From the NCBI GenBank assembly GCA_035495615.1, contig DATJFP010000092.1:6914-70913 (forward strand): a stretch of 64,000 nucleotides of DNA, in the 5' to 3' direction. A program made the translations under genes and the position numbers. Positions 25,313 through 64,000 of this stretch are shown piece after piece. This stretch comes from Verrucomicrobiia bacterium (lineage in GTDB: Bacteria; Omnitrophota; Omnitrophia; Omnitrophales; Aquincolibacteriaceae). How positions within the stretch are numbered: the stretch's first letter is position 1; every line of letters begins with the position of its first letter. The notes beneath the pieces are model-generated. The model ran no database searches, was not told the origin of the DNA, and was given only the letters and a program-made list of their open reading frames with translations.

Positions 25313-25333
25313 CGTCCTAAAATGCGCTGCGGC

Positions 25334-25825: not shown

Positions 25826-25958
25826 ACATGCCTCCATACAATCAGATTTACTGCTAATTCAACTGTAAGTTATTCCTACCAAAACTTCAAATCCTCACAA
25901 GACTAAATTTCGTTAAAATCTCAGTTTTTTTCATCTCGTTAAAAACTCTTTCCGCTTC

Positions 25959-27188: not shown

Positions 27189-27192
27189 AAGC

Positions 27193-30662: not shown

Positions 30663-30664
30663 TC

Positions 30665-41632: not shown

Positions 41633-41788
41633 TCCTAGAAAATCCTCCAACTTGGACTTTAACGATGATGGATGTGGCCGGGGATAAACCGGCGGAATAA
41701 CTGCCGGAATAATGCCATAAAATACCAAAAAAGGCGGGGAAATACCATCACAAGGTTAGAAAAAAAGGAAAAAAGGTGTGAATGAAAA

Positions 41789-44439: not shown

Positions 44440-44446
44440 AGGAAAC

Positions 44447-44523
44447 GGGGACACACCTGAAGGTATGTCCCCGTATCAAAAAAAACGTTTGGGGACAGGT
44501 CTTTAGACCTGTCCCCTTTTTTG
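44447..44523. terminator. bidirectional rho-independent terminator shared by lipoprotein gene (+) and giant gene (-)
   Basis: Two GC-rich hairpins: GGGGACACACC...GGTATGTCCCC (44447-44472) and GGGGACAGGTC-tttaga-CCTGTCCCC (44491-44516). The second is followed by T6 on the plus strand and by a T8 run on the minus strand after a 4-nt gap. Confidence 0.75.
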
Positions 44524-44551: not shown

Positions 44552-47500
44552 TTATGCCGAGGATTTGACCTGCATTTCCTCGAGCAAGGAATCGGTCAAC
44601 GAAGCGGCGACGGCTTCGGCGACCAGCATGCCGCGGTTACCGTTCGGAGCCTTGGCCGCGTCAAAGACGTACGGCGGAATTTCCTTCAGACCCAAGATGG
44701 ACAGGACGAGCGCGGTCTCGATCAGTTTACGGATGGCAAGATCGCGGTCCTTGGCTTCGGCCGCGGGATTGACGACAGCAAGACCGACGGCCAGTTTGCC
44801 GGCGTAGTCCGCGTTGACGGCCTGATACATGTCGGATTCGGCGCCCTGGACCATGATGGCCTGGTTGCCTTCGGCGGCGATCTCGGCATTGAGGTTGACC
44901 ATCGTGCCGAGCTGATCCACGTTCGTGGCAAACCGCACGGTCTGCGTTCCGTAGTAGGCGGCCAGCTGCGCCCAGCGCGCGTCGAACTGCACGCCGGCGA
45001 TGACCACTTGGTGGCGCCTGGCGAACATTTCGGTTTCGAGGGCCGGCATCGAGATCATCATGGCCTGCGCCGGGTGCACGCCGCCCATCGCGCCCTGGAC
45101 ATTCATCACCCAATCCGTGACGGTCAGGAGGCCGTCTTCCTTGGCCAGCGCTTCTTTGAGTTCCGCGCCCGTATGCTGCGTGGCCATACGGATGAGAAGC
45201 TCGATGTTTTCGCCGCGGCCCTGGAAGTAGTCGCGCGCGGCGGCGGACGTCTTCGGATCGTTCAGGATGCCTTCGATGTCGCCGAGCGTCGTCGAGTACG
45301 CGGCCAGTTCGTGCAGGACGTCGAACGCGTGAGAATTGTAGCCCAGCGTATCCAGCGAAGCGCGCAGCTGCGGGTTGGCGGCCAGGGCTTCGATCTTTGC
45401 ATGCAGTAAGGCGTGCGTCTTTTCGTGGTTCAGGAAGATCCGCAGGTGCTGGGCGCGGATCGTGCGGTCCAGGCTTGTGTCCACGAAGCGTTCGGGCGTC
45501 ACGACGATCTTGGTGCTGCCGTCTTCCATGTGGCGCGCATAACCCAGACGGCGGTTGTCCTGCGCGAGCAGCGTGTCTTCCGGGCGCTGCACGAAGAACA
45601 TATGGATGTTGTCGGGATTCGTGCCGCGCAGCATGGAGAGCACTTCCTCCGGCGATTCGAAGGCCGCCGCGAGGACGTTTTCGAGTTCGGCAGTCTGTTC
45701 CGGCGTGAGGCCGAGGTCCTGGCCCGCGAGTACGCCTTCGAACGGGGCTTCGCGCAGTTCCGACTTCGGCGCGGCCGGCGCCGTTTCACGCAGCTCGCCG
45801 CGGATTTTCTTGAGCGCCTGAACAAGCGTATCCCCTTCGAGGCCGGCAAGATTGTCCAGCCATGTTTTCAGCTGGCCGGGCAATTCTTCGATGCCGGAGA
45901 AGAACTGGTCGGCGCCCGCCTGGATCGCAATGCCGTCGTTCAGGATCCGGTCCACGAGGCCCTTCATGAATTTCACTTCTTCGATCGCCGGCATCTGCTG
46001 GCTCTTGTCCGCGATGCGGTTGTACATGATCGGGACGAGGAGCGCCATGACGCGGGCGATCAGCGCGTTGACGTCGGCGCGCTCCGGAGCGGACGCGTCG
46101 AGGCTGGCAAGCAGCTGGTCGAGCGACTCCAGCGCGCCGAGCAGCTCTTTCGCGGAACGGTTCTGGTCCTTGCGGCTCTGGATTTCGTCGATCGTCCAGC
46201 GCAGGCCGTTCACGAGATCGGCGCGGCTGTTCGAGAAATCCACTTTCGGCATGAATTCGGACAGCTCGCGGAGCGAAACAGGATCGGCCTTGGCCATGCG
46301 TTCGTCCATCCAGGACTTGGGCTTGAACTCGATGATGACATGCCGGCTTCCGACCTTGGTGATGAACTGGAAGGCCTGGCCCTGGCGCGCGAGGCCGTTG
46401 TACTTTTCACGCGTCTCCTTGACATTGTCGCCGTCATAGATCTGGTCTTGCGGGTAAGTCGCTTCGTCGTCCAGGCGCTTGTCGCCGATCGGCAGGAGCT
46501 GGTAGCGCGTTTCGCCAAGGCCCGTGCCCGCATAGCCGTAAGCGCCTTCGGCGAGCTGGTAGATACCGTCATAATCACGCAGCGTATCGCCCATCACGCT
46601 GGAAGGCAGGACATCGTAAGTTCCCCTCGCGCTCCTCGGATGGATATGATAGAAGCCGCCGAGCTGATTCTTGGCGTAAACTTCGACCTGGTTGTGCTTC
46701 AAGCCGGTGGTCAGGATAAAGCGCTCGCGGCCCGTGGACGGGTCGATCTGGGCGCTGATCGCGAATTCGTACGGCATCTTCTTCATCATTTCCAGCTCGT
46801 CGCGCGTGGGCTTGGCCGAAAGCTCGACCACATAACGGCCGTTCGCACCGAGATCGCGGTGCAGCGCGCGCGTGGCCGAGGCCTGCGCGAGGACGTCGTC
46901 GCGGTCGAGCGCGGCCGCGGCGGCTTCCGCTTCCGCCTTCTCCTGATGGAGTTCCATGTAGCGTTCCGACAGCTGCTGCATCTGAGACGGATCCATCGTA
47001 CGGGCCATCTCCGACAGCTGCTGCATTTCCTGATCGATTTCTTCGGGACGGTTCAGGATCTTGAGCTGTTTGGCCAGCTTCAGGCTGTCGTTCAGAACCT
47101 CGGCCAGCGAAACGGTTCCTTCCATGCCGAGGAACTTCACGTTGTAGGCGTGGACGCGAGGATTGACGCTGCCCGCTTCCCAGAGCGCGGCCATGGCCAG
47201 GATGCCGAGCTCCGTATCGTCGGAGCGCAGGAACTGGGCGATGAGGCCGAGCGCCCGCTGCAGGCGCGCATCCAGCTCGTCCTGCGTCGGAGGCGTGGGA
47301 GGAATTCCCGCGCCGGCCTTGCGTCCGTCATACTGCAGGGCGACGTCGATGATCTTGTCGAAGACCTTTCTCATGGTGCGGTTCTTGAACGCCACTTCAT
47401 CAACGGAATCATTCGGCGCGTAATCCTGCAGCTCTTTGGCCAGCGCCTTGAGCTCGGTGCCGTCCGCGTCGTAATCCGCGTCCGCGGCGAGTTTCTCAGC

Positions 47501-50500
47501 GTAGGACTTGGTCTTGTTTTCGTAAGCGGCCATCACCGAAGGCTTGGCCGCGTCCGCGCCGATCTTGCTGTTGAAGGCCTGGCGGCTCGTTTCGATCTGC
47601 TGGCCGACGCGGATGACTTCGTCCGGCGTGAGATTCAGGAAGCCCGTGATGTCGGAGATCGTCTTGGCCGTGCGCGCGATGTACATGACCTGCGCCGGCG
47701 TCAGATAGCGTTCCAGGTAGCGCATGGCCGCGCGCATCTGCTTCATCTGGCGCAGTTTGTTCAGCTTGCGCTCTTCCAGGTTCTGCGACTTGAGGAAGTT
47801 CTGGTAAACGTCCGAACGTTCGACCTTCGCGTCGAGCGCCGACACCTTCGGGTCGACACCCTGCGTCACTTCGCCTCTGAGGCGCGCCATGTAAGCGTTC
47901 AGCTGGTTCTGCAGTTCTTGTTCCTGCTGCTCGTCCAGCTTGTCAGTCTTCAATTCCTTGAGCTTCATTTCACGGTACAGCTGCTGCCACTGGAACCGCT
48001 TGACGTTCTTTTCTTCATCGCGGTACTGGTCCATGGCGTACGAGAAGATCGGGCCGTTCTCCATGCTGTCTTCGTCGTAGGAGCGGCCGCTCTGCTGGAT
48101 CTTGCGGATCAGGATCTGCACCGTGTACGCCTCGTTTTCGTCGAGCAGCGTGCGGTCGGCGGTGCTGTCCTTGCGCTTGCCGGTCGGATCGGTCGGATCG
48201 ACGTAAGCCTGCTCTTTGCGCTGCGTGCCAAGGCCCAGGTCGATCATGTGGGTGGATTCGTGTTCGAGCGCTTCTTCTTCGTAACCCGCGATCGAGAAGA
48301 TGTAACCGGACTTGCGGAACACATGTTCCTGGCCCTTGAACTTATCGGGACCGGAGACGACAGGAATGTTCTTGGTTTCGTCCGGACGCGTCGCGTTGGC
48401 CTGGCCGGTCGCCGACAGGAAGCCTTTTTCGCGCAGCCACTGCAGCGCGGCCTTGGGCACGGAGATTGAAATGACCGGGACGTCCGGCAGGCCGAAGATG
48501 TCCTGCCACACTTTCAGGAGCGGGTCGCTGCTCGCCATGCGGACGCTGACCTGGACGGGCCTGTCGGTGCCGGCCGCCTTTTTCAGGCCTTCCTTGTCGA
48601 TCTTGGGCTTGTCGTAATAGTTGTTGAGGCCTTCGAGCACGTAATCCAGGGCCTTCTCGTATTCCTCGGCCGAGCTTCCGTCTTTCATCATGTTGCTGAT
48701 CTCGAGCAGGTCAGCCTGCGATTCGCGCATGCGCTTGATCTTTTCGTAATAACGCACGACGTCCGCCTGGTCCAGCGGGCCTTTTTCGAACCGCTCCTGC
48801 AGGGTTTCCGCATTGATGCCTTTCACATAATCGTCTTTCAGGTCGTCGTCTTTTTCGCTGACGCGGTACTTCACTTTCAGCACCGAGGCCGCGGCCTGCG
48901 CCGACGCATCCGCCTGGACGGCCAGCCGCAGCAGGTTGAGGCCGACGAACTTGTAGCTGTCGTCGATCAGTTTGTCTTCCATCAGGAAGCTCTCGGCCAT
49001 GTCGAGGAGGACAAGGCTGAGACCCTTTTTCAGCGCCTTCACGTCATCCGCGGCTTCCTGCTTCGCCGTGGCATCCGCCGCCGCGGCGCCGCGCGCTTCG
49101 GCCTGCTTGATCGCGGCTTCGTAAATCGACTTGAGCTGGACCATCGCGAGCGGCTTCGTCAGATCGATGTTCAGGGCCGCAAAATCCAGGCCCGTGCGGT
49201 TCAGCAGCGCGCCGCCGTCCTGGCCCGCAAGCGCTTCCAGCACCTGGGTCGTGGTCAGCGCGCCGGTATCGATGCGGGTGCCGCGGGCCGCGAGGAGCGG
49301 CACGATAAGCGCCAGCTTGTCCCCTTGCTCGGCGAGAGCTCCGGTAAGGCCGATCTTCGGCGCGACGAGCGACAGGAACAGCATGCGTTCGAACAGCGTG
49401 AGGTCGTAACGGTCCATGATGCCCGTGACTTCCAGCAGGTTGTCCGGACGGCTCACGCCTTCGGCGAGAGCGTTCATCTTGTAGAGGATCTTGGCGATCT
49501 CTTCCAGCTTCAGCTTGAGGATCGGCCAATGCCCGCGGATAGCGACGGTGAAAATGTCCCAGACGCCGCGCGGCACGAAGGCGAGATCAGGATCGAAGCG
49601 CACGAGGAGATCCGGAATGCTGCCCAGGTCCGGCGCCGTGGTCTTGTCGTCCAGCTGCTGGTGCTTGGCGGCCAGGAACGGCTGGTCGATCGCAAAGAGA
49701 TTGCCCGGCCGCAGGTTGTCTTCGAAATACGCCGCTTCGATCTCGCGGCGGCTCTTGCCCGTGCGCTTCTGCGTGTTTTCGACGTAGGCATTCAGGCGGA
49801 AGTGGTCGTAACGGCGCGCCGTGCGGATCTGGTTGTCCAGGGCCTGGCCCGTCTTGATCTGCAGGTCGTCCTGGTCGAGCAGCTTGCCGAGGCGCGCGTA
49901 CGCGTCCTGCTGCAGCTTCATCAGGACTTCGAGATTATTCTCGTCAAATCCTTTTTCTTTGTTCAGACCCAGGCTCTTGGCCGCATCCAGCGCGCGTTTC
50001 TTGTCGCGGTTCACGTCCTTCTCGGAGACGTACGGCGACGGCTTGCCGAGCGCCTTCGCCTGTTCGATTTCCCGCTGGATCTTGGGATCTTTGTAGTCCA
50101 CGGCGCTCTTCTGCAGCGCCACCAGCGTGTCGAGCGCCTGCTTCGCGCGGACCGCGTTGAGAAGGTCGACGAGCGCCTCTTCGACCGCTTCGACGCGGGC
50201 GTGGTCGCCGGCGGCCGTGGCCGCGTCATGTTCGGCGCGCAGCTTCATCATTTTGAGGTCGAACGCCGTTTCCTGGCTCGGTTCCTGGAAGCCTTCGGCG
50301 CCGGCCTTGTAGAGGTCGGACCAGGCCTGGTCGATCTCGTTACGCGTGAGCGGCGAGAACAGGCGTCCGAAGAAGCTGGTCTTGCGGTCCAGCGCCTCGG
50401 CCTTGTTCAGGAGGTACTCGCGCACTTCTTTTTCCGTGCGCTGGCTCTGTTCGACGAGCGTCTGCACGGCCTTTTCCTGGCGGACCAGGTAGTACAGCGC

Positions 50501-53500
50501 GTCGAGCGACAGGTCGACGAGCGCGTCCATGCCATAGCCCGCGACGGCGCGGCGCAGGTCGTCCCGGAAGTTCAGCGATTCGTCCTGGGCCAGGAGGTCG
50601 ACCACCGACAGGAACAGGTTGTGCTGATACGCATCGACCTGGCCGGGCGTGGCGCCCCGCAGGAACGCGGGCTTGAGTTCGTGAATGTCGGAGAGCTTGA
50701 AGCCCTTCAGCGTGGCGCGCAGGCTTTCGAGGGCTTTCTGCTGCTGGCGTTCGTACTTGGCCTTGGCCTTCTCGAGGCTCGCCTTTTCGCGGTCGATTTC
50801 TTCGCCGGTCGCCGTGGCAAAACCGCGCTCGGACTTGCGCAGCGCGATCTTCTGCAGCTCGATCTCCGCGGACCGCAGGCTGTCGCGCTGCTGGGACAGG
50901 CGCGTGTAGAGCTGACGGACAGGCTTGGGCATGTCGGAACGGGCGTTCTTCAGGGCGATCTGCGCGATGCGGCCGGCCGGGCTCAGTTCGCCGTAGCCGT
51001 CGCCGTAGATGTCGAAGAGGAGCTTCGAGTCCACTTTGCTTTCGATTTCTTCGCCGGTCAGACCGACGTTCTCGAGATGGCGGACCACGTTGAGCAGCTG
51101 GTTCAGGCCGCGGCGGTCGTAGCTGGTGAAGTCAACGAAGCCGCGGTCGGAAAGTTCCAGCGCGATGCGGTAAAGTTCGCGGTCATCTCCGTCGTCCCAG
51201 TGGAAGCCGAGCTTGCGCAGGCTGTTCTTCTGATAGTCGGACAGGTTCTGCAGGTCTTCGATGGTCCGCGTGAACGCCTGGCCTTTACGGGTCAATTCGT
51301 AATGACTCTGCTCGACCGTCTCGCCGTTCCTGACGTCGGTAACCTCGCGTTTCTGCTCGCTGACAAGGCCGCGGCTCTCCAGGTTTTCAGCCACGGCTTT
51401 CGCGGCTTCGGCCTGGTTGTTGCCCAGATGCGCGATCGCGCGGTTGGCGTCGGCCAGGTTCGCGGACTTCACTTTGATTTCCTGATGACGTTCCACGGCT
51501 TCGGCATTGATGACCATCTTCTCCAGGTTCTTGGCCAGGCGGACCGTATCCACCAGGTTGTTGGTCGTGGACAGGCTTTCCTTTTCGACGCGCAGGCCCG
51601 GCGCGACGCTTTCTCCGATATTCAGGTCGCGGAGGATCTGGATGCCGCGGTCGCTGAACCGGACCGAGCACGAGGAGCACGATTCGCTGAGCTCGACCAG
51701 CAGGCCGCGCAGTTCGGTCTTCGACACGTCGGCAAGCAGGGCTTTCAGCGCCGGGTTCTGCTCGGCGAGGAGCGCCAGCGTGCGGAACGTGCTTTCCGAA
51801 CGCGCCACATTGTCTTCGTGACTGGCCAGGACGTCGCGCTGCTGGCCCTTGATGATCTGCTCGAGAAGCGCCTTCAGGGCCGATTCCGCGGTGGCCGGCG
51901 AATTAAGGGCGGACTCGGAATTCGCGAACAGGTTCTTGATCTGGCCTTCGAGCGCGACTTTGTTCGCGTCCACCGTCGAGCCGAACAGCAGCTCCTTCTT
52001 GGCCGCGTCGATTTCCGCGAGGAAGCCCTTGATCATGTCCATCGGATCATCGCTGTTCTTGGCGAAGTCGTGGATGTCGGTTTCCATGGCGTTCAGGTCC
52101 ATCGCCTCATTATTCAGCGCCAGCATGTTGCGGTAGCCGGCGAGGTAGGCCTCGCGCATGGAGTTGAGTTCGCCCAGGACGCGCGACTGCATCTGCTCGC
52201 CGCCGGTCAGGTATCCCTTTTCCTGGAAGTCGAAGTTCACGTCGTCGTCCTGCGCCTCGCGGTTCTGCCAGTCGGTATAGAAATCGTTGATCGCCTGGTG
52301 GACCTTGGCTTTGGCCTTGTAATCCTCGCTGAACTGGAAGCCGTGCTCTTCCATGCGCTGCAGTTCGGCCAGCGCGCTCTTGAGCTCGACGCGCCATGCG
52401 GTCACCATCCGGCGGGCCTCGTCACCCCGGGCCGTATTGTCGCGGCCGGCCAGGCTCGAGTAGTTCTGGATGTTCTTGGAGAGCTCCTTGATGTCCTCGA
52501 CCAGCTGCTTCTGCCGGTCTTCGAACGCCTTCCGCTCCTGTTTTTCCATCTGGGCGAGCTCGCCCTTCAAGCCGTTCAGCATGGACTGCGCGATTTCGTG
52601 GCCGCGGTCTTTCAGCGTTTCGCCGACCTTGTGCAGCAGCGAGCCGGACACGTCGTTCTTGATGTAGTTCCACGCCGACACCATCATGAACCATTCGATC
52701 TCGGTCAAAGTGTCCTTCATTTCGAGGCGCTCGATCAGGTTCAGCGTCAGGCGGAATTCGTTTTCTTTCATTTCTTCCTGGTACTTTTTCAGCGTGATCT
52801 TGCCGCGGTTCAGATCCTTCAGGAGGCCGGCCTCGAACTGGGCCAGGACTTCCTGCATGGCGCCCTTGAAGCTGTTGTTGCGCTCGTGGATGTCCATCTC
52901 GATCGAATTGCGGATGGCCTGGAAATCCTTGGTCGGGAGCAGCACCTGGCGATGGCCGATTTCACCCTTGCCGCGGACGATGCGGCCGAGGATCTGCATC
53001 ATTTCGCGGAAGCCGCGGCTCGCGGACTTGATGGTCAGCGACCACTTGCCCTGGAAGTCGACGCCCTGCTGCGTGTCCTGGATGTTGTTGGTGACGACGA
53101 GCGACGGCGTGCCCAGCGACGCGGCCACGCGCGCGACCGTCGGGATGAGTTCGCTGAAGGCCACGGCGTCGACCGCGAACATGTAGCTCTTGTTTTTGTC
53201 GGTCAGCTTCGGAAGCGCTTCGAGCTCCTGCTGGTCCTTCTGCGTGGCCTCGAGGATCATGTCCGTCTTCTTCTTGAGGTTGTCCTGAATTTCCTGGTAA
53301 CGCTGGCTGCTCCACACGTTGTCGCCCAGCTGCCGTTCGAGCTGCGTGGCCTCTTTCTGGAGGCGTTCGAACAGGCCGATGACCGACTTGACGTTCTTGC
53401 CCACATCGACTTCGATATACGTGCGGCCGCCGTTGTCCTTTTCCGCCTTGAAGCTTTCGAGGACCTTCGAATACTCCGTGTGGTCTTCCACGAACATCAG

Positions 53501-56500: not shown

Positions 56501-59500
56501 CAGGTCCTGCGCCGTGGCGTTGGCCAGCGTGATTTCCGTGCCGTCGCGCGCCTTCAGGTTTTCGAGCGCCGCCATCAGGCCGTGCGCGATCATCATGCGC
56601 TGCGCCCGGACCCGCGCGGAAACGCCGGCCGGCACCAGGATGTTGAAGAGCGGATGGCCGCGGAAGCTGTTGAAACCGAACGGCATGAATCCGAACATTC
56701 CGAGCGCGGCCGTCTGGTACGGCACGTCGCCCTGCACGTAATTGCCGAGGAATGCGAAGGCGTCGTTGAACGGTACGCCGTGGAAGGTGCCGAGCGCGGC
56801 CAGGGCCGCGACGATGCCGATGAAGCCGAGGCTGACGACAGCCGCGGCGCGCGCGAACTTCGCCAGCGGCGAGCGCGAGGCGCGGACCGGCGTTCCGAGA
56901 ACGTCGGCCAGGTCTTCGACCATGTCTTTATACTGCGTTTCGTTCAGTGAGCGGCCGTCCGCCGACAGGTTCAGGCGCTGTTCGACGTCGGCGACCGCAT
57001 CCAGGATCCGGTCCTTGGTCTGGCGTGTCGTTTCGAGCTGGCTGGCCAGGACTTTCAGAGTCGCCTGGTGCTGCGCGATCTGGCTGAGGAGCGACGAGCT
57101 CAGGAAGCGCGCGTTGACCGTGCCGAGAAGCGCCTGGATCTGATCGACGTACACCTGCGCGTTCGCGACGTCCATGCGGTTCAGCGCGGCGATGAGCGCC
57201 GACATCAGGAGATCGATATTGAGGACCATGAGCGAGTGCGTCTGTTCCTGCGCCCACGGATTGGCGGCATTCGTCTGAAGGGCCTGGATGCGCTGGCCGA
57301 GGTCCTGCAGGTCCTGGCGGAACTTCGCCAGCCGCGCGATGCCTTCCTGCGTATTCATCTTGTTCGCTTCGATCGCTTTTTTCAGGCCCGCGTATTCGGT
57401 CCTGTAACCGTCGAGCTTGGTGAGGACATCAAATTCTTCGGTGGCGCGCGTCTGGGCATCGGCCTGCGTGGCGTAGGTTTCAACCGTGATGCCGTTGATC
57501 GTGACCGCGTAGATCGAGCCGCCGTTGGAGAGCTGACGTTCTTCGACCACGACCGCGTCGCGGCCGAGCGTCTGTTTGGAAACTTCTTTGGAAGAGACCG
57601 TCACGGGGGCGGCCGGCGCCGAGGTGCCTGACAGCGCGGGCGCGGCCTGGGCTTCGAGCTGGGCCTGGCGCGCGGCGGCGAGATCGGTCTGGGCCTGGTG
57701 CAGTTCCTGTTGCGCATCCGCATAGGCTTTTTCCGCGGCGATGACTTCAGGCGATTTCACTTTCGCTTCGGCCTGCGCTTCCGTGCGCGCCTGGACCTGC
57801 GCCACGGCATTTTCCGCGACGCTCGGGGCTTTGGCGCCCTGCTCCACGGCCATGACCAGGCGGAGCGAGCGGCCCACGAGATACGCCGCGAAGATCTGGA
57901 TGCCGAGAACAGCCGGCAATCCGATCGGCGCCAGCACGGTGAGGCCGAGAACCGGCGCGGCCACCATGAGGACGGCGGAGGTGAATCCGCCGAGGACGCC
58001 TGCGGCCCACGGGCCGATGACGGCCGACACCATCCGGCCGATGAACGACGTAGGCTCGGCGCTCATCTTGCCGAAGAGCAGCGTGCCGATGCGTTCCATC
58101 CAGGCGCCGAAGACTTGGCCCGTGGTCGGGGCCGAAGACGCGGCGACGCGTTCCGCTTCGCGGATCGTCTGGGGCGCGGCGGCTTCTTCGGCCTGCGGTC
58201 CGGCGCGCGTCTGCGCGTTCGCACGGATCGCGGCGATGACTTTCACGGCCCAGATGAAGAGCGAGACGCCGCCCAGGATCGCGGCCTGGATCGCGGGCGC
58301 GAACGGGAGAATCGCCGCAACCACGCCGAAGCCGGTGGCGGCCAGAGCAATCGCGGTGCCCCAGATGATCGTATTCGTCCAGAGGTTGAAGCGCTTGGTC
58401 TGCGCGTTATTCTTGTTTTCCAGGTCGATGTTGGCGCCGAAGCGGTTGAGAAGCGCCGCGAGCGGAGCCTTCACCCAGGAAACCGAGGTCTTGAGAATGA
58501 AGGCCGAAAGGACCGTGATGACGCCCGGGATGCCGAAGACCGCCAGGAGGCCGCTCACGAACAGGTAACCCAGGCCGCCGACCAGGCCGACCGTGAGCAG
58601 CTGCGCCGTGATGTCCTTGAGAACGCCGAAGAAGCCTTTTTCTTCGGCTGCCTGTTTATTGAGGCCGAGGGTGGACTCGGAGAAGATCAGCGCGAACAGG
58701 CCCGGCAGCACGAGATTGATAAGGGCTCCGATCACCGGCGCCTTCTCGACCACCTTGAAGACGAACCATTCCTGGACCGCGTGCATGCGCTTGGCAAAGC
58801 GGCCGAAGGAGGTCGCCTCGCCTTTCTGCGCGAGGATCTGTTCCTGGATCACTTCGGCCACGGCCTCGAGGACTTCCAGGATGTTGAAGCCGTCGGCGTT
58901 CATCACCTGCTCGGCCACCTTCTGGAGCAGCTCGAGCAGCTTGGTCCGGTCGGCGCCGATCTGCGCGGCCAGGAAGTCGATCACCGCGCGGACGACGGCC
59001 AGCACGCGCAGCTTCGTCTGCTTGGCCTGGATGTCCATGGCCTTCTGGTAGTCCGCGCTCGAAATGCCGAGCAGGCCGTGCGTGTATTTCAGGATGAAGG
59101 ACGCGATGCGGCCCACGATCGAGGACAGGAACTGCACCAGAATCGAGCGCGAGTTCGTGGCCGGCGTCATGAGGTAATTCAGGAGGCGCAGGATCGCGTT
59201 CTGCAGCCAGCCGAGCAGGCCGTTTTCGGACTTGAGCAGCTCGCTCTTTTCCTGCGCCATGTCTTCGGTCGCCTGGTTGACCGCGTCCATGACGTCCTGC
59301 GCCGAAGCGTTCTGGTCGATCGTGATGCCGAGTTCCTGGGCCACGGCACGGGTCGCGCCGTCCGCGACTTCCTGCGCCGTGACGTCCGGCTGGCTGGCGA
59401 TGAGTTCCGAAATCGTCTGGAGGATCTTGCCCGCCGCCTTCTTCTCGTCTTTCAGGTTTTCAGAATCCTGGAGCGCCACGTTCTTGAACGCTTCCGTGAC

Positions 59501-62500
59501 CTTGTCGGTGCGCTGCTCGCTCGCAGCCTGTTCCGCCGCCGTCTTCGGCAGCTCGGTCCGGGCCGGCGCGTTCAGCTTGCCGCCGTTCAGCACGGTCTCG
59601 ATGGCGTCTTCCACGCGGCCCAGCGAATTTTCCAGCGCGCGGACTTCCGGCGTGGTCTCGGCGTACTGGGCGATCATGCCTTTCAGGCCGGCTTCATCCA
59701 CGTGTCCGGCGTCGATGAGGTCGGTCAGCCGCGCCGCTTCCTGCACCGAGATCTGGCCGCCGCTGCGGGCTTCTTTGACAAGGTCTCTGAGGAACGCGAT
59801 GCTGCGCAGCGATTCCTTTTGCTTCTCGCTCATCGGGGCCTGCTCGACGGCCTTGGCGCGGGCTTCCTCGATCTTCTTCTGGGCTTCTTCAAAGGACTTC
59901 ATCGCGCCCTGAGCCGTGGCATTGGCGGCCGCGAGCCTCTTCTCGGCTTCGGCCAGCCGCAGCTGCGCCTGAGTCTGGGCTTCGGCCAGGCGCGCCTTTT
60001 CCTTCTCGCCGTAACCGGCTTCGGCCTTGTCCGCATCGGAAATCGGAGCGGCGGCTTCTTCCAGCGCTTTTTCCGCGGCATAGCGGCTCTCGAGCGCGGC
60101 CTGGAGGTCGGCCTCGGCCTTTTGCACCTGGATCAGCGCGGCGGCCTTGGCATCCGCGTCGCCGATCGCGAGTTTTTCCTGGGCCTGACGCAGGGCCTCG
60201 CGCGCCGTTTCTTCCGCGGTCTTCGCTTCCTGCACGCGGTTGACCAGGCCTGCGCGGGCTTCGACTTTTTCCGCTTCCTTGGCCTTGGCTTCCGCGTCGG
60301 CCTTGGCTTTTTCGGCCTGGGCCCGCAGCGTGTAGGCTTCCTGCGCGGCCGCGAGCATCTGATAGTACGGCGTATTCTGGACTTCGAAATCAAGGCCCGC
60401 GAGCTCGAGCTTCGACAGCGCCTTCAGGAGCGCCACGCGGCGTCCTTCGGTCATCTGGCCGAAGCGGACCAGGTCGCCCAGCATCGCCGCCGCCTCGTCT
60501 TCGGTGTTCAGGTTGTGATGGGACAATTCGTGGCTGAGCGCGAAATCGAGGATCGCCATGATTTCGCGCGCGCTGAGCTTGGTCGTGCGCAGCAGGTCCG
60601 CATTGAAAGAGAACGTCGCCGTCGTGTTGTCGGCGCTCAGCGCGACGCCCGCGACCTGCGTGGTTTCTTTGAGGAGCCGGATCTGGACCTTCTGGAGGTC
60701 CGGCTGCATGCGCTGGGCCGCGAGAAGTTCCGTGGCGATCAGCCGCACGAGGCGTTCCTGCAGGACGCGGTAAGTGTCGTTGTCGATGCCCGCAAACAGC
60801 ACGCCGAAGACTCCGGCCAGTTCGGCGCGGAGGATTTCCCAGAGTTCCGCCTGGCTCTTCGCGGCTGAGGCAAGCTGCACGTCGATCGAGATCAGGCCGT
60901 TTTCGATCGTCACCAGCTGCGCGTTCTCGACCGAGGTCATGGAGTCGCCCAGCAGGTTCTGGCCTTCGAAGGTGCGCGCGCCCTTCGCGGCAGCCTTCAT
61001 GCTGATCGGGAACGCGGCCATGCCGTGATGACCGCCGGTTCCGTCCACGGCCTGGCGGAAGAAGTCCGCGATCTTGGCGATAACGGCTTTCTGACCGTCA
61101 TCCATTTCCCCGGTGAAGAAGATATCCTTCAAGCTGTCTTCCACGGCTTTCTGCGCGGCCGCCTGCTCTTCCTGCCTCAGTTTCTGCTGCTCGGCGGCGC
61201 TTTTCTTCATGTCATCGATCATCTGACGGATGCCGACCACGTTCTGCGTGAACGGAGCCGTGTCGGAGATCATGTCCCCGATCATGCCCTGGGCTTCCGC
61301 GCGGGCCTCAGCCTCGAGTTCGTCCGTGATTTCCGCGGCTTCGCTCATCTGCTGCAGGAGCACCTGGGCGAGTTCGGCTTCGAGCGCGGCGATGGTTTCA
61401 GCGCGCTGCTGCTGATGCGCTTTCGCCTGCTCGGCCGTGATCGTCACCGTGACGCGGCCGGACTTGATCTCGACCTGGCCGTTACGGATCGCTTCCTGCA
61501 GGGTCTCGTTCGACGCTTCCGTCAGGAGGCGCGCGGCCAGTTCTTTCTTGAAGGTTTCGATGCGGGCCGCGGTTTCCGCCTGGCGGGCCCGGGCTTCGAG
61601 GATCCGGTTCTCGGCTTCCAGGACCGCGCCGCGGTATTCCGCCTTGTGCGCTTCGTCCATGGCCGCGTAGCGCTGGAGATTGGCTGCGACGGCACGGACC
61701 GCGTCTTCCACGTTCGCGCCGGCGGCCGCGCGGTCGAGCGAAAGGATGAAGATGTCGATTTCAGCCTGCGTCATTTCCGAGAGATCCTGCAGCAGCTCGA
61801 CGCGTTCGTTGACGTCCATGCCGTGGGCTTCGGCCAGCGCGTCCACGAACCGCTGCGCCGCGGCCTTGCGGGACTCGCTCGCTTTGGCCACGACCGCCTG
61901 TCCGGCGCTCGCGACGCGTTCCTTGTTTTCCTGGGCCAGCGCCGCGGCTTTGAGTCGCGCTTCGTGCTCGGCCTTGACCTGCGCCAGCCGCTGGGCGCGC
62001 TGGTCGACGGCGGCCTGATGCGCCTGCTGGGCCTGGGCCGCGCGCGTGGCGTAAGCCGCGCTGCGCGCCGTGAGGTCCGCGACCGTGGCTTCGAGCGTCT
62101 GGATCTGCAGCGTGAACTGCGCGGCTTCGGAATTGCGGTCGGCCTGCAGCTTGCGGACCTTGTTTTCAAGATCCTCCTGTTCCTTGCTGAGCGACTGCAG
62201 GGCTTCTCCGCTCATGAAGCGCTGCATGCGTTCGAGCTTGTCGGCTTCCGTCATATTGATAAGGGCCTGAAGCTCCGCTTGCGCGGCCGCGATCTGCTTG
62301 TCCAGGTTCTCGAGCCGGGTCTGCTGAGCGGCACGCGCCTGGACAAGCTCATTCTGGGCGCTGGTCAGCGCGTTGGCAAACGTCAGGTTTTCACGCTGCG
62401 CGCGGAGCGCCGTGAGATCGCTCTGTATCTGGCGGATCTCGTCACGGTTTTCGAGGGCCGCCGCATAATCGGCCTGCAGGGTCGCAAGCTGCGATTCCAG

Positions 62501-64000
62501 GCCCGCGATCTGCTGGTCAAGCTCCTCAACGCGGTCCTCAAAACCGCTCAGTTCCGTGCCCATCAGTTCCGCCTGGTCTCTCAGGCCGCGGATCTGCTCG
62601 AGCTCCGCGAGCTCGGCCGCGAACACCGTTTCGCCGCTCTGTCCCGCTTCCGTGACAACGGCAAGGCCGCTCGCCAGTTCCGCGAGGTCGCCTTCGCTCA
62701 GGTTCATGAGCCGCTGCATGAGGTTCGCATTGGCCGCGATGGCCGCGATCCACGTGTTCAGCATGGCCTGGGCCTGGGCATCGAGGCGTCCGAAGGAGTC
62801 GAGGAACTGCACGGCCGCGCGCTGGAAGTTCTGCAGCGCCTGCAGCTTGGCCTGCGCGGCCGCGGTCGTGCCGAGGATCTGCTGGAATTGGCCGGCCAGG
62901 TGCGCCTGCAGGCCCGCTCCGAGAACCGCGAATCTTGCCGCGAGCGCGGCCAGGGCATCGAGCGCCTGCAGCTGCGCCGCGTGATCCAGCCCGCTGTCGG
63001 CCGCGGCAATCAGTTCCGCGATCTGGGCGATGACGCTCTTCATGGCATCCGGGAAGCTCTGGAACGCGGCGATGACGGACGCCTTCTTATTATTAAGCTC
63101 GGTCGCGCGGGCCTTCGCATCCAGTTCCGCCGGCGAAACATTGATGGCGGCCTGCACCGCGGCCGTATCCGTGGCCTTACCGAGGCTCGCGAGGAATTCT
63201 TCCTGGTGTTCGGCGCTCATGGCCTGGAACTCGGCGATCTTCGCGAGCACCGCGTTGACCGCCGCGACAGGGTCCGCCGCCTTAAGCGCATCCTGCAGCG
63301 CGCCCATGAAGGCATCCAGCACTCTCGCATCGAGATTCGCCAGAAGATTGAGCATGTTCACGCGCTCGGTCACGTCGATGTTGAGGTTGCGGATCGCTTC
63401 GGCCGCGCGCTGCGCCGCGTCTTTGGCCGTCGCCTTCGCGACGAGACGGCCTTCGGCTTCCGTCACGGAAGCGGTTTCTTTCGCTTTTCTTTCCTGCTCG
63501 CTCTTGGCGGCCTGGTAATCGGCCTGGCGTCCGGCAAGGCGCTGAGCGCGGGCCTGGACCGCGGCCTGCACGCTGGCGCCGGCCTGGGCCGCGGCAACGC
63601 GTCCGCTCACCTGCTCGCCGAGCGCGGTCAGGCGGCTGACTTCGAGCGTCTGGGCCGCGATTTCGCCGGTCAGGCGCGCTTCTTCGCTCGTGCGCAGCGC
63701 CTGGAGATTTGCGATCTCGGCTTCGAGCTGGCGTTCGGTGCGGCGGAATTCCATCAGGTCGACCTGGCCGCTCTGGATTTCGGCCTGCCAGGCGATCTGC
63801 TGTTCGGGCGTCAGGTCCTGGCGGCGGTGCGAGCGGAGGTCGGCTTCCGCGGCCGCGATCTGATCGGAGATGTCCTTAAGGCGCTGCGGCAATTCCTGGC
63901 GGAGCTGTTCGAGGCGGGCCTGCGCGGCCTGCAGCGCCTGGCTCTGAGACAGGGATTCACGTTCGGCGCGTTTGGAATTCAAGTCGCTGGCGATCGAGCG
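44552..64000 (-). CDS. giant uncharacterized protein, >6476 aa, partial (5' end beyond right window edge); Ala/Gln/Glu-rich helical/coiled-coil megaprotein with internal TM islands, NTPase-like and HEx[S/T]H motifs
   Basis: Uninterrupted minus-strand frame from 63982 to the stop at 44552. The frame remains open through 64000 (the listed first codon is TTG and the upstream codons are sense). Residue composition is protein-like, whereas the plus-strand ORFs inside it are antisense shadows. It ends at a strong terminator. Confidence 0.85.
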   Translation of the reverse strand, partial: RSIASDLNSKRAERESLSQSQALQAAQARLEQLRQELPQRLKDISDQIAAAEADLRSHRRQDLTPEQQIAWQAEIQSGQVDLMEFRRTERQLEAEIANLQALRTSEEARLTGEIAAQTLEVSRLTALGEQVSGRVAAAQAGASVQAAVQARAQRLAGRQADYQAAKSEQERKAKETASVTEAEGRLVAKATAKDAAQRAAEAIRNLNIDVTERVNMLNLLANLDARVLDAFMGALQDALKAADPVAAVNAVLAKIAEFQAMSAEHQEEFLASLGKATDTAAVQAAINVSPAELDAKARATELNNKKASVIAAFQSFPDAMKSVIAQIAELIAAADSGLDHAAQLQALDALAALAARFAVLGAGLQAHLAGQFQQILGTTAAAQAKLQALQNFQRAAVQFLDSFGRLDAQAQAMLNTWIAAIAANANLMQRLMNLSEGDLAELASGLAVVTEAGQSGETVFAAELAELEQIRGLRDQAELMGTELSGFEDRVEELDQQIAGLESQLATLQADYAAALENRDEIRQIQSDLTALRAQRENLTFANALTSAQNELVQARAAQQTRLENLDKQIAAAQAELQALINMTEADKLERMQRFMSGEALQSLSKEQEDLENKVRKLQADRNSEAAQFTLQIQTLEATVADLTARSAAYATRAAQAQQAHQAAVDQRAQRLAQVKAEHEARLKAAALAQENKERVASAGQAVVAKASESRKAAAQRFVDALAEAHGMDVNERVELLQDLSEMTQAEIDIFILSLDRAAAGANVEDAVRAVAANLQRYAAMDEAHKAEYRGAVLEAENRILEARARQAETAARIETFKKELAARLLTEASNETLQEAIRNGQVEIKSGRVTVTITAEQAKAHQQQRAETIAALEAELAQVLLQQMSEAAEITDELEAEARAEAQGMIGDMISDTAPFTQNVVGIRQMIDDMKKSAAEQQKLRQEEQAAAQKAVEDSLKDIFFTGEMDDGQKAVIAKIADFFRQAVDGTGGHHGMAAFPISMKAAAKGARTFEGQNLLGDSMTSVENAQLVTIENGLISIDVQLASAAKSQAELWEILRAELAGVFGVLFAGIDNDTYRVLQERLVRLIATELLAAQRMQPDLQKVQIRLLKETTQVAGVALSADNTTATFSFNADLLRTTKLSAREIMAILDFALSHELSHHNLNTEDEAAAMLGDLVRFGQMTEGRRVALLKALSKLELAGLDFEVQNTPYYQMLAAAQEAYTLRAQAEKAKADAEAKAKEAEKVEARAGLVNRVQEAKTAEETAREALRQAQEKLAIGDADAKAAALIQVQKAEADLQAALESRYAAEKALEEAAAPISDADKAEAGYGEKEKARLAEAQTQAQLRLAEAEKRLAAANATAQGAMKSFEEAQKKIEEARAKAVEQAPMSEKQKESLRSIAFLRDLVKEARSGGQISVQEAARLTDLIDAGHVDEAGLKGMIAQYAETTPEVRALENSLGRVEDAIETVLNGGKLNAPARTELPKTAAEQAASEQRTDKVTEAFKNVALQDSENLKDEKKAAGKILQTISELIASQPDVTAQEVADGATRAVAQELGITIDQNASAQDVMDAVNQATEDMAQEKSELLKSENGLLGWLQNAILRLLNYLMTPATNSRSILVQFLSSIVGRIASFILKYTHGLLGISSADYQKAMDIQAKQTKLRVLAVVRAVIDFLAAQIGADRTKLLELLQKVAEQVMNADGFNILEVLEAVAEVIQEQILAQKGEATSFGRFAKRMHAVQEWFVFKVVEKAPVIGALINLVLPGLFALIFSESTLGLNKQAAEEKGFFGVLKDITAQLLTVGLVGGLGYLFVSGLLAVFGIPGVITVLSAFILKTSVSWVKAPLAALLNRFGANIDLENKNNAQTKRFNLWTNTIIWGTAIALAATGFGVVAAILPFAPAIQAAILGGVSLFIWAVKVIAAIRANAQTRAGPQAEEAAAPQTIREAERVAASSAPTTGQVFGAWMERIGTLLFGKMSAEPTSFIGRMVSAVIGPWAAGVLGGFTSAVLMVAAPVLGLTVLAPIGLPAVLGIQIFAAYLVGRSLRLVMAVEQGAKAPSVAENAVAQVQARTEAQAEAKVKSPEVIAAEKAYADAQQELHQAQTDLAAARQAQLEAQAAPALSGTSAPAAPVTVSSKEVSKQTLGRDAVVVEERQLSNGGSIYAVTINGITVETYATQADAQTRATEEFDVLTKLDGYRTEYAGLKKAIEANKMNTQEGIARLAKFRQDLQDLGQRIQALQTNAANPWAQEQTHSLMVLNIDLLMSALIAALNRMDVANAQVYVDQIQALLGTVNARFLSSSLLSQIAQHQATLKVLASQLETTRQTKDRILDAVADVEQRLNLSADGRSLNETQYKDMVEDLADVLGTPVRASRSPLAKFARAAAVVSLGFIGIVAALAALGTFHGVPFNDAFAFLGNYVQGDVPYQTAALGMFGFMPFGFNSFRGHPLFNILVPAGVSARVRAQRMMIAHGLMAALENLKARDGTEITLANATAQDLFMALRQIELSRAELAGEAMLMRFEISEQARLGRLEATRTEAAAAREAAKAPAESAKATPTAKEAAEAKKAAKAPEPARAAALEEFQSAQAPTASPLKTAPAAGSLAFRFQEALVKMEDLRSQLAVVRGMPMRLRDPSLSMKEEQLEDQIEQLEKGELSALRKEAYETKDLAALQAIVDVAFSMPSSLRNDTATLTVLSRALANNSLDADQRAQLHAYADKAIAEFTGANPNVAQDIKYGIFDLQAEMELTAGQAGRLLQDYFKNGTIDGAAVYKAFVEGVKARLGDGYKLDRESLLVYHNKIFGHRLLIEFMRETYRKTYEEVEGRTHDKDQAAREAQAAADKVRADSAYRFDLRAVQKGIIGDFLMEEIGNGKTAVGKNMVAMVKASTEIALARQNSEVSGSVILAETETKGADFANGKAGIKGPNDLRVSVPNQELVRLFGAGELIDIQKLLVARDFEKLEAALRNDEAIKVIAPDQVGFALITLQDQPAILELLMAKLDSWGIEEIDKFQAEITQYILSDTKNATVNAEEYINKIRELYTMLGVTYDENGIANKNALLVAKDNREAKRLLDIADKFGNAQLIVEGTDKDAEVYMSKALKERVKERIVSGEFRASEVKEAVRALGMQYAKHFETNEYGELHPKENGKIQSTNFSGRVTKLVLSFISNEVLAKKAAKLTDEVTALKGDLEKLKTDAAANADKIKEKEARLEKIQGRNLAEIETEKENLEKQLLTTADAAQRDDIQARIREINVLRGELAEVNDKMVKEHELENSLTQATSTQMSLIKRIIDKANKNVTRIEIADITGRTEVQVGAHAEITNTASNVTLERVQINGAEYLVVEGRYGRDLIRMSDIPQENNGKNQGILNLNNHITVTQTAEGELLLRRHIRRAGSTATYSPLSSILMGVHTVARDRSRMQQGEERDNEGNVISAAWTYAEDITANDVKQLIAKSEAAEATKKNDEIGRANAKNLMFVDEENGVAKMLEIGRAYLEKGWAHLMFVEDHTEYSKVLESFKAEKDNGGRTYIEVDVGKNVKSVIGLFERLQKEATQLERQLGDNVWSSQRYQEIQDNLKKKTDMILEATQKDQQELEALPKLTDKNKSYMFAVDAVAFSELIPTVARVAASLGTPSLVVTNNIQDTQQGVDFQGKWSLTIKSASRGFREMMQILGRIVRGKGEIGHRQVLLPTKDFQAIRNSIEMDIHERNNSFKGAMQEVLAQFEAGLLKDLNRGKITLKKYQEEMKENEFRLTLNLIERLEMKDTLTEIEWFMMVSAWNYIKNDVSGSLLHKVGETLKDRGHEIAQSMLNGLKGELAQMEKQERKAFEDRQKQLVEDIKELSKNIQNYSSLAGRDNTARGDEARRMVTAWRVELKSALAELQRMEEHGFQFSEDYKAKAKVHQAINDFYTDWQNREAQDDDVNFDFQEKGYLTGGEQMQSRVLGELNSMREAYLAGYRNMLALNNEAMDLNAMETDIHDFAKNSDDPMDMIKGFLAEIDAAKKELLFGSTVDANKVALEGQIKNLFANSESALNSPATAESALKALLEQIIKGQQRDVLASHEDNVARSESTFRTLALLAEQNPALKALLADVSKTELRGLLVELSESCSSCSVRFSDRGIQILRDLNIGESVAPGLRVEKESLSTTNNLVDTVRLAKNLEKMVINAEAVERHQEIKVKSANLADANRAIAHLGNNQAEAAKAVAENLESRGLVSEQKREVTDVRNGETVEQSHYELTRKGQAFTRTIEDLQNLSDYQKNSLRKLGFHWDDGDDRELYRIALELSDRGFVDFTSYDRRGLNQLLNVVRHLENVGLTGEEIESKVDSKLLFDIYGDGYGELSPAGRIAQIALKNARSDMPKPVRQLYTRLSQQRDSLRSAEIELQKIALRKSERGFATATGEEIDREKASLEKAKAKYERQQQKALESLRATLKGFKLSDIHELKPAFLRGATPGQVDAYQHNLFLSVVDLLAQDESLNFRDDLRRAVAGYGMDALVDLSLDALYYLVRQEKAVQTLVEQSQRTEKEVREYLLNKAEALDRKTSFFGRLFSPLTRNEIDQAWSDLYKAGAEGFQEPSQETAFDLKMMKLRAEHDAATAAGDHARVEAVEEALVDLLNAVRAKQALDTLVALQKSAVDYKDPKIQREIEQAKALGKPSPYVSEKDVNRDKKRALDAAKSLGLNKEKGFDENNLEVLMKLQQDAYARLGKLLDQDDLQIKTGQALDNQIRTARRYDHFRLNAYVENTQKRTGKSRREIEAAYFEDNLRPGNLFAIDQPFLAAKHQQLDDKTTAPDLGSIPDLLVRFDPDLAFVPRGVWDIFTVAIRGHWPILKLKLEEIAKILYKMNALAEGVSRPDNLLEVTGIMDRYDLTLFERMLFLSLVAPKIGLTGALAEQGDKLALIVPLLAARGTRIDTGALTTTQVLEALAGQDGGALLNRTGLDFAALNIDLTKPLAMVQLKSIYEAAIKQAEARGAAAADATAKQEAADDVKALKKGLSLVLLDMAESFLMEDKLIDDSYKFVGLNLLRLAVQADASAQAAASVLKVKYRVSEKDDDLKDDYVKGINAETLQERFEKGPLDQADVVRYYEKIKRMRESQADLLEISNMMKDGSSAEEYEKALDYVLEGLNNYYDKPKIDKEGLKKAAGTDRPVQVSVRMASSDPLLKVWQDIFGLPDVPVISISVPKAALQWLREKGFLSATGQANATRPDETKNIPVVSGPDKFKGQEHVFRKSGYIFSIAGYEEEALEHESTHMIDLGLGTQRKEQAYVDPTDPTGKRKDSTADRTLLDENEAYTVQILIRKIQQSGRSYDEDSMENGPIFSYAMDQYRDEEKNVKRFQWQQLYREMKLKELKTDKLDEQQEQELQNQLNAYMARLRGEVTQGVDPKVSALDAKVERSDVYQNFLKSQNLEERKLNKLRQMKQMRAAMRYLERYLTPAQVMYIARTAKTISDITGFLNLTPDEVIRVGQQIETSRQAFNSKIGADAAKPSVMAAYENKTKSYAEKLAADADYDADGTELKALAKELQDYAPNDSVDEVAFKNRTMRKVFDKIIDVALQYDGRKAGAGIPPTPPTQDELDARLQRALGLIAQFLRSDDTELGILAMAALWEAGSVNPRVHAYNVKFLGMEGTVSLAEVLNDSLKLAKQLKILNRPEEIDQEMQQLSEMARTMDPSQMQQLSERYMELHQEKAEAEAAAAALDRDDVLAQASATRALHRDLGANGRYVVELSAKPTRDELEMMKKMPYEFAISAQIDPSTGRERFILTTGLKHNQVEVYAKNQLGGFYHIHPRSARGTYDVLPSSVMGDTLRDYDGIYQLAEGAYGYAGTGLGETRYQLLPIGDKRLDDEATYPQDQIYDGDNVKETREKYNGLARQGQAFQFITKVGSRHVIIEFKPKSWMDERMAKADPVSLRELSEFMPKVDFSNSRADLVNGLRWTIDEIQSRKDQNRSAKELLGALESLDQLLASLDASAPERADVNALIARVMALLVPIMYNRIADKSQQMPAIEEVKFMKGLVDRILNDGIAIQAGADQFFSGIEELPGQLKTWLDNLAGLEGDTLVQALKKIRGELRETAPAAPKSELREAPFEGVLAGQDLGLTPEQTAELENVLAAAFESPEEVLSMLRGTNPDNIHMFFVQRPEDTLLAQDNRRLGYARHMEDGSTKIVVTPERFVDTSLDRTIRAQHLRIFLNHEKTHALLHAKIEALAANPQLRASLDTLGYNSHAFDVLHELAAYSTTLGDIEGILNDPKTSAAARDYFQGRGENIELLIRMATQHTGAELKEALAKEDGLLTVTDWVMNVQGAMGGVHPAQAMMISMPALETEMFARRHQVVIAGVQFDARWAQLAAYYGTQTVRFATNVDQLGTMVNLNAEIAAEGNQAIMVQGAESDMYQAVNADYAGKLAVGLAVVNPAAEAKDRDLAIRKLIETALVLSILGLKEIPPYVFDAAKAPNGNRGMLVAEAVAASLTDSLLEEMQVKSSA

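Follow-up and report, generated by a model that had tools for sequence, protein, structure and literature searches.

A giant, Pfam-dark reading frame with an SF2 helicase-like ATPase core in a Verrucomicrobiia metagenomic contig

The 64,000-nucleotide stretch analysed here (the window; positions 6,914 to 70,913 of contig DATJFP010000092.1, Verrucomicrobiia bacterium assembly GCA_035495615.1) ends in one very long open reading frame (ORF) on the minus strand, at 44552..64000. This is, with high confidence, a genuine giant gene with a superfamily 2 (SF2) helicase-like ATPase core, and its product belongs to a rare family. The product is a multi-domain membrane protein of mosaic make-up, essentially without repeats. 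Tentatively, it is best explained as a multi-enzyme giant that is anchored in the envelope and driven by ATP, a smaller and Pfam-dark counterpart of the Omnitrophota giant proteins. An earlier sequence-only reading of the window had called the product unclassifiable. As far as profile libraries are concerned this is the case, but the few relatives of the protein reveal both the SF2 ATPase core and an HExxH...ENEAY motif. Residues (aa) of the giant protein are counted from window position 64000 on the minus strand.

The frame is without a stop codon from 64000 to 44552-44554, where it ends, and translation of the reverse complement gives 6,482 sense codons. The other two minus-strand frames meet stops within 6 and 13 codons. 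In the ORF table the frame is listed as 44552..63982 (-), with 6,476 aa from the first TTG. The codons above this TTG read RSIASD and the frame is open at 64000, therefore the true start lies outside the window. An independent assembly (Logan, SRR9009773), to which the neighbouring 200-aa ORF led, keeps this gene order. Its giant product has at least 7,575 aa, the frame still being open where the 26.9-kb contig ends. By exact look-up the genes of the window are the NCBI proteins HTL48739-HTL48762, and they are also present in JGI sample 3300045391. The GC content by codon position (GC1/GC2/GC3) is 0.67/0.39/0.84 in the giant frame versus 0.60/0.38/0.75 in 20 neighbouring genes, with a GC3 of 0.81-0.87 and a GC2 of 0.33-0.42 in each 1,000-codon block, and the relative codon usage of the two sets correlates at r = 0.95. 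Frame, GC3 and Logan assembly all agree with the view of the sequence-only reading that this is a single real ORF that starts beyond the window edge. That reading had also dismissed three plus-strand ORFs within the gene (1018, 1775 and 1056 aa). These are all in one phase relative to the sense frame and have a GC1 of 0.82-0.86 that mirrors the sense GC3, and should therefore be seen as antisense shadows. Tandem DNA repeats, the absence of which had been taken to set the gene apart from RTX, Bap and Ebh genes, were not found in 44552-64000 (Tandem Repeats Finder, 0 arrays). The GC3 of the giant gene is above that of its 20 neighbours, and its overall GC content climbs from ~0.61 at the 3' end to ~0.66 at the 5' end, with the remaining window at 0.53-0.61.

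Relatives of the giant protein are very few. An exhaustive phmmer scan with aa 2801-3800 against 1.84 billion cluster representatives identified only 10 at an expectation value (E) ≤1e-3, seven of these at E ≤1e-30. The core of the protein, aa ~2596-6482 (~3,900 aa), is collinear with a handful of other giants at ~27-33% BLASTP identity. Protein P0003 (4,302 aa) gives one BLAST alignment to aa 2596-5895 (29% identity) as well as a match to aa 977-1229, and P0002 (3,821 aa) was aligned to aa 2664-5918. The C-termini of these two align with that of the giant protein and all three share a similar C-terminal tail. For P0005, P0007 and P0008 (4,340-5,488 aa) the common part is the ~950-aa ATPase region only, at 23-25% identity. 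Because independent proteins from other metagenomes are collinear with the product over thousands of residues, a chimera is very unlikely for at least aa 2596-6482.

Degenerate-pattern scans added one locus from 185,579 GTDB species genomes (L001, where a 9.4-kb contig consists of a single open frame from end to end), one locus from the JGI metagenomes (L002), and no relative from 2.9 million viral contigs. Locus L002, whose product is 99.8% identical to P0003 over 3,007 aa, supplies the 5' end of that gene, so that L002g and P0003 together give a complete relative of 4,859 aa. By eye, the N-terminus of this relative, MTQRSGLLTKSLAAFLAFLLLFDPFQSVRPSWVWA-AG, is signal-peptide-like, and the N-termini of P0005 and P0007 are likewise. 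The region that follows the signal sequence (L002 5261-8860, aa ~60-560 of the relative; FIEDAHAVYD ... LVTGGFHAGG) resembles by eye domains of the ChaN/TraB/erythromycin-esterase type, with Pfam silent. No counterpart of this region was found inside the window.

The SF2 helicase-like ATPase region is at 52901..55444 on the minus strand (aa 2853-3700). Motifs I, II, III, V and VI are all present in canonical order. In the giant protein these are the Walker A sequence GKTAVGKN at 2873-2880 (window 55361-55384), IEEID at 3006-3010 (motif II), STAT at 3395-3398 (motif III), QQGVDF at 3644-3649 (motif V) and QILGRIVR at 3669-3676 (motif VI). In an alignment (A2) of 7 proteins that are 21-36% identical to the protein of the window, a Q upstream of the P-loop, T..GK, I.E.D (as IEEID, IDEVD or IDEAD), (S/T)AT, QG.(D/N)F and Q..GR..R are invariant. 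Two tandem RecA-like alpha/beta domains are found. An insert of ~385 aa separates motif II from motif III, and a spacer of ~235 aa that contains coiled coil separates motif III from the second RecA-like domain. The AlphaFold2 model made from the ATPase alignment has a predicted local distance difference test score (pLDDT) of 67 and places long helices inside the insert. Among the Foldseek matches to this model is SecA of M. tuberculosis, at E 0.02 over an 875-column alignment. The sole Pfam helicase trace is Helicase_C_2, of the DinG/XPD type, at E 0.09 in one family member. The assignment of the ATPase to the SF2 helicase-like superfamily is established. Together with the conserved C-termini, the conserved motifs point to purifying selection.

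Between the ATPase and the C-terminus, aa 3700-5150 are conserved and mostly helical. A zincin-like module follows at 47966..48553 on the minus strand (aa 5150-5345), with HESTH at 5247-5251 and ENEAY at 5288-5292. The HE..H and E.EAY elements, ~37 residues apart, are invariant in the giant protein, P0002 and P0003, which are 35-43% identical here. At the level of motifs only, this may be seen as a gluzincin-type signature. A beta-rich module is located at 46301..46843 (-; aa 5720-5900) and carries HIHP (5785-5788), PS (5799-5800), GD and RDYDG. The pattern HxHP...PS....GD..RD(Y/W)DG is invariant in the same three proteins, and the model reaches a pLDDT of 65-85 in this part. A JAB/MPN identity may be considered for aa 5720-5900, but the spacing is atypical of JAMM and no PDB structure matches significantly. 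The C-terminal region at 44555..45703 (-; aa 6100-6482) ends in a conserved tail, ..Q V x S/V A A, in the alignment with P0002 and P0003. Within it, HEKTH at aa 6192 is not conserved among the three proteins.

The N-terminal part is of a different character. Heptad-rich aa 1-276 (63173..64000, -) and aa 523-796 (61613..62434, -), ~522 aa apart, match one another by phmmer at an independent E-value of 7e-22. The two copies are 34% identical as protein with almost no similarity as DNA. They represent an ancient internal duplication, the sole one found on comparison of the protein with itself. The next conserved module, at 60314..61072 (-; aa 977-1229), includes HELSHH at aa 1157-1162. It matches aa 373-619 of P0003, which are aa 930-1176 of L002g, at 28% identity by BLASTP (E 1e-11 to 2e-12), and HEIEHH of the relative occupies the position of HELSHH. 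The membrane region at 56666..58744 (-) has ~8 hydrophobic helices in aa 1753-2049, then a 334-aa loop and 1-2 further helices in aa 2384-2445, ~nine helices in all, with Kyte-Doolittle values of 1.7-2.5 over 19-residue windows. Short uncharged turns alternate with K/R-bearing loops between the helices, and an Arg-rich segment follows the last. This suggests, by the positive-inside rule, that the helices form hairpins, and that the long loops are cytoplasmic together with the C-terminal ~4,000 residues.

No significant match to the giant protein was found in Pfam, whether the protein was searched as two halves or as ten 700-aa tiles, and the relatives were likewise without one. The sub-threshold matches to FeS_assembly_P, DUF7019 and KaiC_arch_4 among the halves, tiles and relatives are considered noise. 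NCBIfam, PHROGs and PADLOC gave no match, and a phmmer search of the PDB sequences nothing significant. Pfam and NCBIfam revealed no condensation, adenylation, ketosynthase, acyltransferase, RHS-repeat or adhesin-repeat domains, therefore the product is not a non-ribosomal peptide synthetase, a polyketide synthase, or an RHS, RTX, Bap or Ebh protein. The failure of the sequence-only reading to place the product in any named family is borne out by these searches, and the tiles showed no fusion of known families. A protein of which 6,482 residues have zero significant matches in Pfam, NCBIfam and the PDB exposes a blind spot of the profile libraries. A word-indexed protein search with aa 2801-3750, 1-520 and 5155-5345 also gave no match, missing the relatives later found by exhaustive HMMER. 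Two of its runs had 8,000 candidates and the third 59; the relatives from exhaustive HMMER reach E 1e-142. Scans of genome and metagenome contigs with aa 1-500 gave no match, and the window had no Rfam or tRNA match.

On the explanation favoured here, the hairpin helices would anchor the giant protein in the inner membrane. The variable, partly coiled-coil N-terminal arm would lie outside of the cytoplasm; the N-terminal part is placed there in view of the Sec-type signal sequences at the start of relatives. The cytoplasmic face would carry both the ATPase and the putative metallopeptidase core. Hydrolysis of ATP by the SF2 motor would then drive the translocation or remodelling of a polymer, either polypeptide or nucleic acid, coupled to proteolytic processing. 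This topology, and the envelope-anchored, ATP-driven multi-enzyme mechanism that goes with it, is possible and somewhat doubtful.

Several results weigh against this explanation. In the complete relative of 4,859 aa the signal-like N-terminus is the sole hydrophobic helix, and the positions of transmembrane helices vary among the relatives. Without a further transmembrane helix the ATPase of this relative would be outside the cytoplasm, which clashes with the proposed topology, itself derived by hand from hydropathy and the positive-inside rule. In the Walker A motif the P-loop Lys is followed by Asn in the giant protein and P0003, by Leu in P0008 and by the canonical Thr in the four other relatives. 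Since Walker A ends in GKN rather than GK[TS] in the giant protein and P0003, catalytic competence is uncertain, and some members may have an attenuated or degenerate ATPase. Beyond the superfamily, the ATPase is without an assignment at family level. The Pfam families SecA_DEAD, DEAD and ResIII are undetected in 7 out of 7 members even at E ≤10, profile searches of the PDB with the ATPase profile, a 3,886-aa profile and separate sub-profiles of nucleotide-binding domains 1 and 2 (NBD1 and NBD2) gave nothing significant, and the best Foldseek match to the ATPase model is Setx, at E 2e-3. The zincin fold of aa 5150-5345 is putative, with a pLDDT of 30-40, no Foldseek match at E ≤1e-3 and no Pfam or PDB profile match. 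The AlphaFold2 model of aa 5150-5900 has an overall pLDDT of 59, and Foldseek gave no match for the C-terminal modules.

The alternative that survives best, although it is rather unlikely, is a secreted polyvalent effector or toxin. It would be exported via its N-terminal signal, the ATPase and metallopeptidase-like modules would act on a host or prey, and the helices would serve in membrane insertion or translocation. The signal-peptide-like N-termini of three relatives and the lack of any other transmembrane helix in the complete one are what this predicts, although the signal peptides have been judged by eye only. The protease-like motifs are conserved, and so is the enzymatic core as a whole, with N-terminal regions that are variable and lineage-specific. 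Giants of the Omnitrophota and other PVC lineages have been read as prey- or host-directed (10.1101/2023.11.21.568195; PMC12057145). However, neither Pfam nor NCBIfam recognised a toxin, adhesin, carbohydrate-binding or secretion-signal domain, and no dedicated secretion genes are conserved beside the four relatives with genomic context. The ~nine hydrophobic helices in the middle of the protein argue for a resident membrane protein.

A giant nucleic-acid helicase or translocase is improbable. Here the SF2 core, of the DinG/XPD, SNF2 or restriction type, would act on DNA or RNA in defence or as part of a mobile-element polyvalent protein, and the metallopeptidase-like modules would be accessory. 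Against it are the lack of a PADLOC or PHROG match and of any relative in the viral contigs, neighbours that are housekeeping genes, and the absence of nuclease, methylase and other DNA-enzyme domains. Transmembrane helices and signal sequences would also be unusual for DNA enzymes. Integrase and mobile-element genes are not found near the giant gene or near its relatives, and the neighbouring genes are chromosomal housekeeping genes.

The sequence-only reading had itself offered a membrane-anchored fibrous or cytoskeleton-like scaffold, and had described the product as dominated by heptad-like segments rich in Ala, Gln, Glu, Leu and Arg. A scaffold made mainly of coiled coil is now quite improbable. 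The composition is as described: aa 1-1400 are rich in these five residues, and Ala, Leu, Glu and Gln are the four commonest residues of the 6,482-aa fragment, accounting together for ~41%. By a crude, home-made heptad score, 5.5% of 28-residue windows lie above the 99th percentile of shuffles versus 0.9% expected, a roughly six-fold enrichment, and long helices are found in aa 1-1320 as well as inside the ATPase insert. However, the heptad-like windows cover only ~22% of residues, so the giant protein is not dominated by coiled coil. Almost all of these windows are in aa 1-1320 and 3166-3266. The coiled coil is thus mostly in the N-terminal ~1,300 residues, which are not conserved in the relatives, whereas the conserved aa ~2596-6482 are a non-coiled enzymatic core with enzyme signatures and invariant catalytic-type motifs.

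An artefact, whether a chimeric assembly or a long open GC-rich frame that is not one translated gene, is extremely unlikely: although the sequence derives from metagenome assembly only, the Logan assembly has the same arrangement and a longer open frame, GC3 periodicity is uniform along the 6,482 codons, a single BLAST alignment with an independent protein spans aa 2596-5895, and the conserved motifs and C-termini point to selection.

At its 3' end the giant gene converges with a 200-aa orphan ORF (43837-44436, +; HTL48762.1, hypothetical), which is without a match in Pfam and forms a singleton cluster among 15 billion proteins. Between the convergent stops is a GC-rich hairpin at 44491-44516 with an 11-bp stem, 8 pairs of which are GC. 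It is terminator-like on both strands, with TTTTTT on the plus strand and a T-rich tail on the minus strand, as expected for the shared bidirectional terminator that had been proposed. A second hairpin is at 44445-44474. Next to the orphan ORF is a response regulator of inverted domain order (42903-43517, -), with an N-terminal HTH_17 domain of the excisionase/MerR type and a C-terminal receiver, paired with a HisKA/HATPase kinase (41789-42844). A fusion of transaldolase (TAL_FSA) and phosphoglucose isomerase (PGI) follows as a single ORF of 987 aa (38765-41728, -). Beyond the fusion are RecN, RimO, CinA and an HhH-GPD glycosylase, and then a cluster that resembles those for type IV pili and type II secretion systems (T2SS), at 20034-31147 (-), 13.4 kb from the 3' end of the giant gene. 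In this cluster an MshEN-domain-only protein (30665-31147, -) precedes two tandem PilB/GspE-type ATPases (28899-30662 and 27193-28998, -), which are accompanied by PilC/GspF (25959-27188, -), PilM (23333-24457, -), PilO (22117-22767, -), a secretin (20034-21680, -) and an unassigned ORF of 203 aa. RNase G, RmuC and CCA/poly(A) polymerase are further genes of the window.

The neighbours of the four relatives with genomic context differ from those in the window and from each other. They are nuoG, nuoH and a NUDIX gene at L002, an HTH gene and a YqeY gene at L005, a MoxR-DUF58-VWA operon and TPR genes at L003/L004, and further giant genes at L006. At L003/L004 (1-10000) P0007, a complete protein of 4,340 aa with a weak Metallophos match and TPRs, is directly 3' of a 'Bat'-like operon (MoxR AAA-DUF58-VWA-VWA-TPR), and a TPR protein is next. 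At L006 (1-26992) P0005 (5,488 aa) is directly preceded by a giant gene of at least 4,040 aa and directly followed by a 698-aa gene that reaches the end of the locus, all on one strand. Giant genes are therefore clustered at this locus. The sequence-only reading had pointed out the adjacent two-component system and the pilus cluster ~14 kb away. The housekeeping genes that lie between and the lack of shared neighbours at the four relatives argue against a functional unit with either.

The ATPase may be compared with several known motors. In the SecA motor the preprotein cross-linking domain is inserted in NBD1, and a large insertion between motifs II and III is likewise present here. By eye, EEID......TQYILSD around motif II resembles DEVDSILIDEARTPLIISG of SecA and ENSLTQATSTQ resembles ENQTLASITFQN, which serves as a lead only. 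Kinship with SecA was not upheld: hhalign against E. coli SecA gave E 0.15 over motif II only, a result that is not used as evidence. Neither SecA_DEAD (PF07517) nor SecA_PP_bind (PF01043) matched the whole protein at E ≤1 or its 700-aa tiles at E ≤0.5. The giant protein differs from SecA in having an extra beta-rich insertion before motif III, and it appears to lack a helical scaffold and a wing domain. Structural matches to the DinG/XPD (Rad3) and SNF2 helicases have an identity of only 6-13%, and some have a large root-mean-square deviation (10.7 A for the top match). Unlike DinG and XPD, the giant protein has no Fe-S cluster cysteine motif, there being 2 Cys in 6,482 aa. It also differs from these and from SNF2 enzymes in having no DNA-binding or nuclease domain, and its context of membrane helices and signal peptides is unlike that of DNA enzymes.

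Gluzincins have HExxH and a downstream Glu, as in the NEAxSD of thermolysin. The HExxH followed by ENEAY ~37 residues on is similar to this, but has no Pfam or PDB match and a model of low confidence (pLDDT 30-40). The RTX, Bap and Ebh adhesins differ from the giant protein, which has no tandem arrays, one ancient duplication only and no repeat-domain Pfam match. It differs from phage and conjugative polyvalent proteins and from defence systems in having no PHROGs or PADLOC match and a housekeeping context.

The closest comparison is with the giants of the Omnitrophota, a candidate phylum grouped with Verrucomicrobia in the PVC superphylum (10.1101/2023.11.21.568195; 10.64898/2026.06.07.730766). 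Every full-length Omnitrophota giant has many transmembrane regions. In most of them there are divergent SecA DEAD domains that lack the scaffold and wing, and T2SS-like loci adjoin many of the genes (West-Roberts et al. 2023, 10.1101/2023.11.21.568195). A catalogue of 916 proteins of at least 10,000 residues includes 137 that are Pfam-dark; 80% of its entries are singletons by sequence, and transmembrane helices or signal peptides are present in 94% (Nielsen & Lui 2026, 10.64898/2026.06.07.730766). The giant protein resembles the Archaeovorin and Dockerin types of Omnitrophota giant in being encoded by a single giant ORF with multiple transmembrane helices, with signal-type N-termini in its relatives. 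Further likenesses are a divergent P-loop ATPase that is SF2/SecA-like and apparently without the SecA scaffold and wing, peptidase-type modules, a sequence that is largely invisible to Pfam and mostly unique, and a T2SS/type IV pilus-like cluster in the neighbourhood.

The differences are as clear. The product is of at least 7.6 thousand residues, compared with >10 to 147 thousand, far under the >30,000-aa class of West-Roberts et al., and the source label at NCBI is Verrucomicrobiae rather than Omnitrophota. Pfam SecA_DEAD, which defines the published group, is undetected here even weakly, and Pfam reveals no glycosyl transferase or hydrolase, methyltransferase, NUDIX, dockerin or TSP3 domains. 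The arrangement published for the Omnitrophota is a giant gene directly preceded by a conserved T2SS/type IV pilus-like secretion locus and followed by PilZ genes, whereas here the pilus/T2SS cluster is 13.4 kb off the 3' end, behind housekeeping genes, and is not conserved near the relatives; the upstream side is outside the window. Without SecA_DEAD, Archaeovorin or dockerin content or an adjacent secretion locus, and with another taxon label and a smaller size, the giant protein is therefore neither a member of the Omnitrophota giant class nor categorically new. The sequence-only reading had presented it as the best candidate for an undescribed system, which goes too far, because giant, often Pfam-dark, membrane-anchored proteins with SecA/DEAD-like domains have already been described in the Omnitrophota, although this particular family has not been described there.

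It is unlikely, though conceivable, that the protein is the founding member of an undescribed and very rare family of envelope giants, in which a divergent SF2/SecA-like motor encoded in cis would be combined with metallopeptidase modules and a variable exported N-terminal arm as a self-contained machine for ATP-driven export, processing or cell-cell interaction, the ATPase being a new subfamily that is neither SecA, DinG nor SNF2. If this were true, the giant-protein biology linked to the Omnitrophota would extend into the Verrucomicrobiae, at an experimentally tractable size. To a specialist versed in the papers on PVC giants the protein of the window would be no great surprise, and its function is a deduction. 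The PVC-superphylum giants are recognised but functionally unexplained, and the published examples, of 30,000-147,000 residues, are beyond experimental handling. In the family of the window's giant (4,859 to >7,575 aa) the proteins are smaller by one to two orders of magnitude. Their conserved core is compact, at ~3,900 aa, and the ATPase, well delimited and with invariant motifs, is open to expression and assay. If the motor is related to the SecA-like domains of the larger giants, cis-acting export or remodelling would be directly testable. If it is unrelated to them, it would represent a new subfamily of SF2 ATPases, seen in only ~10 of 1.8 billion cluster representatives.

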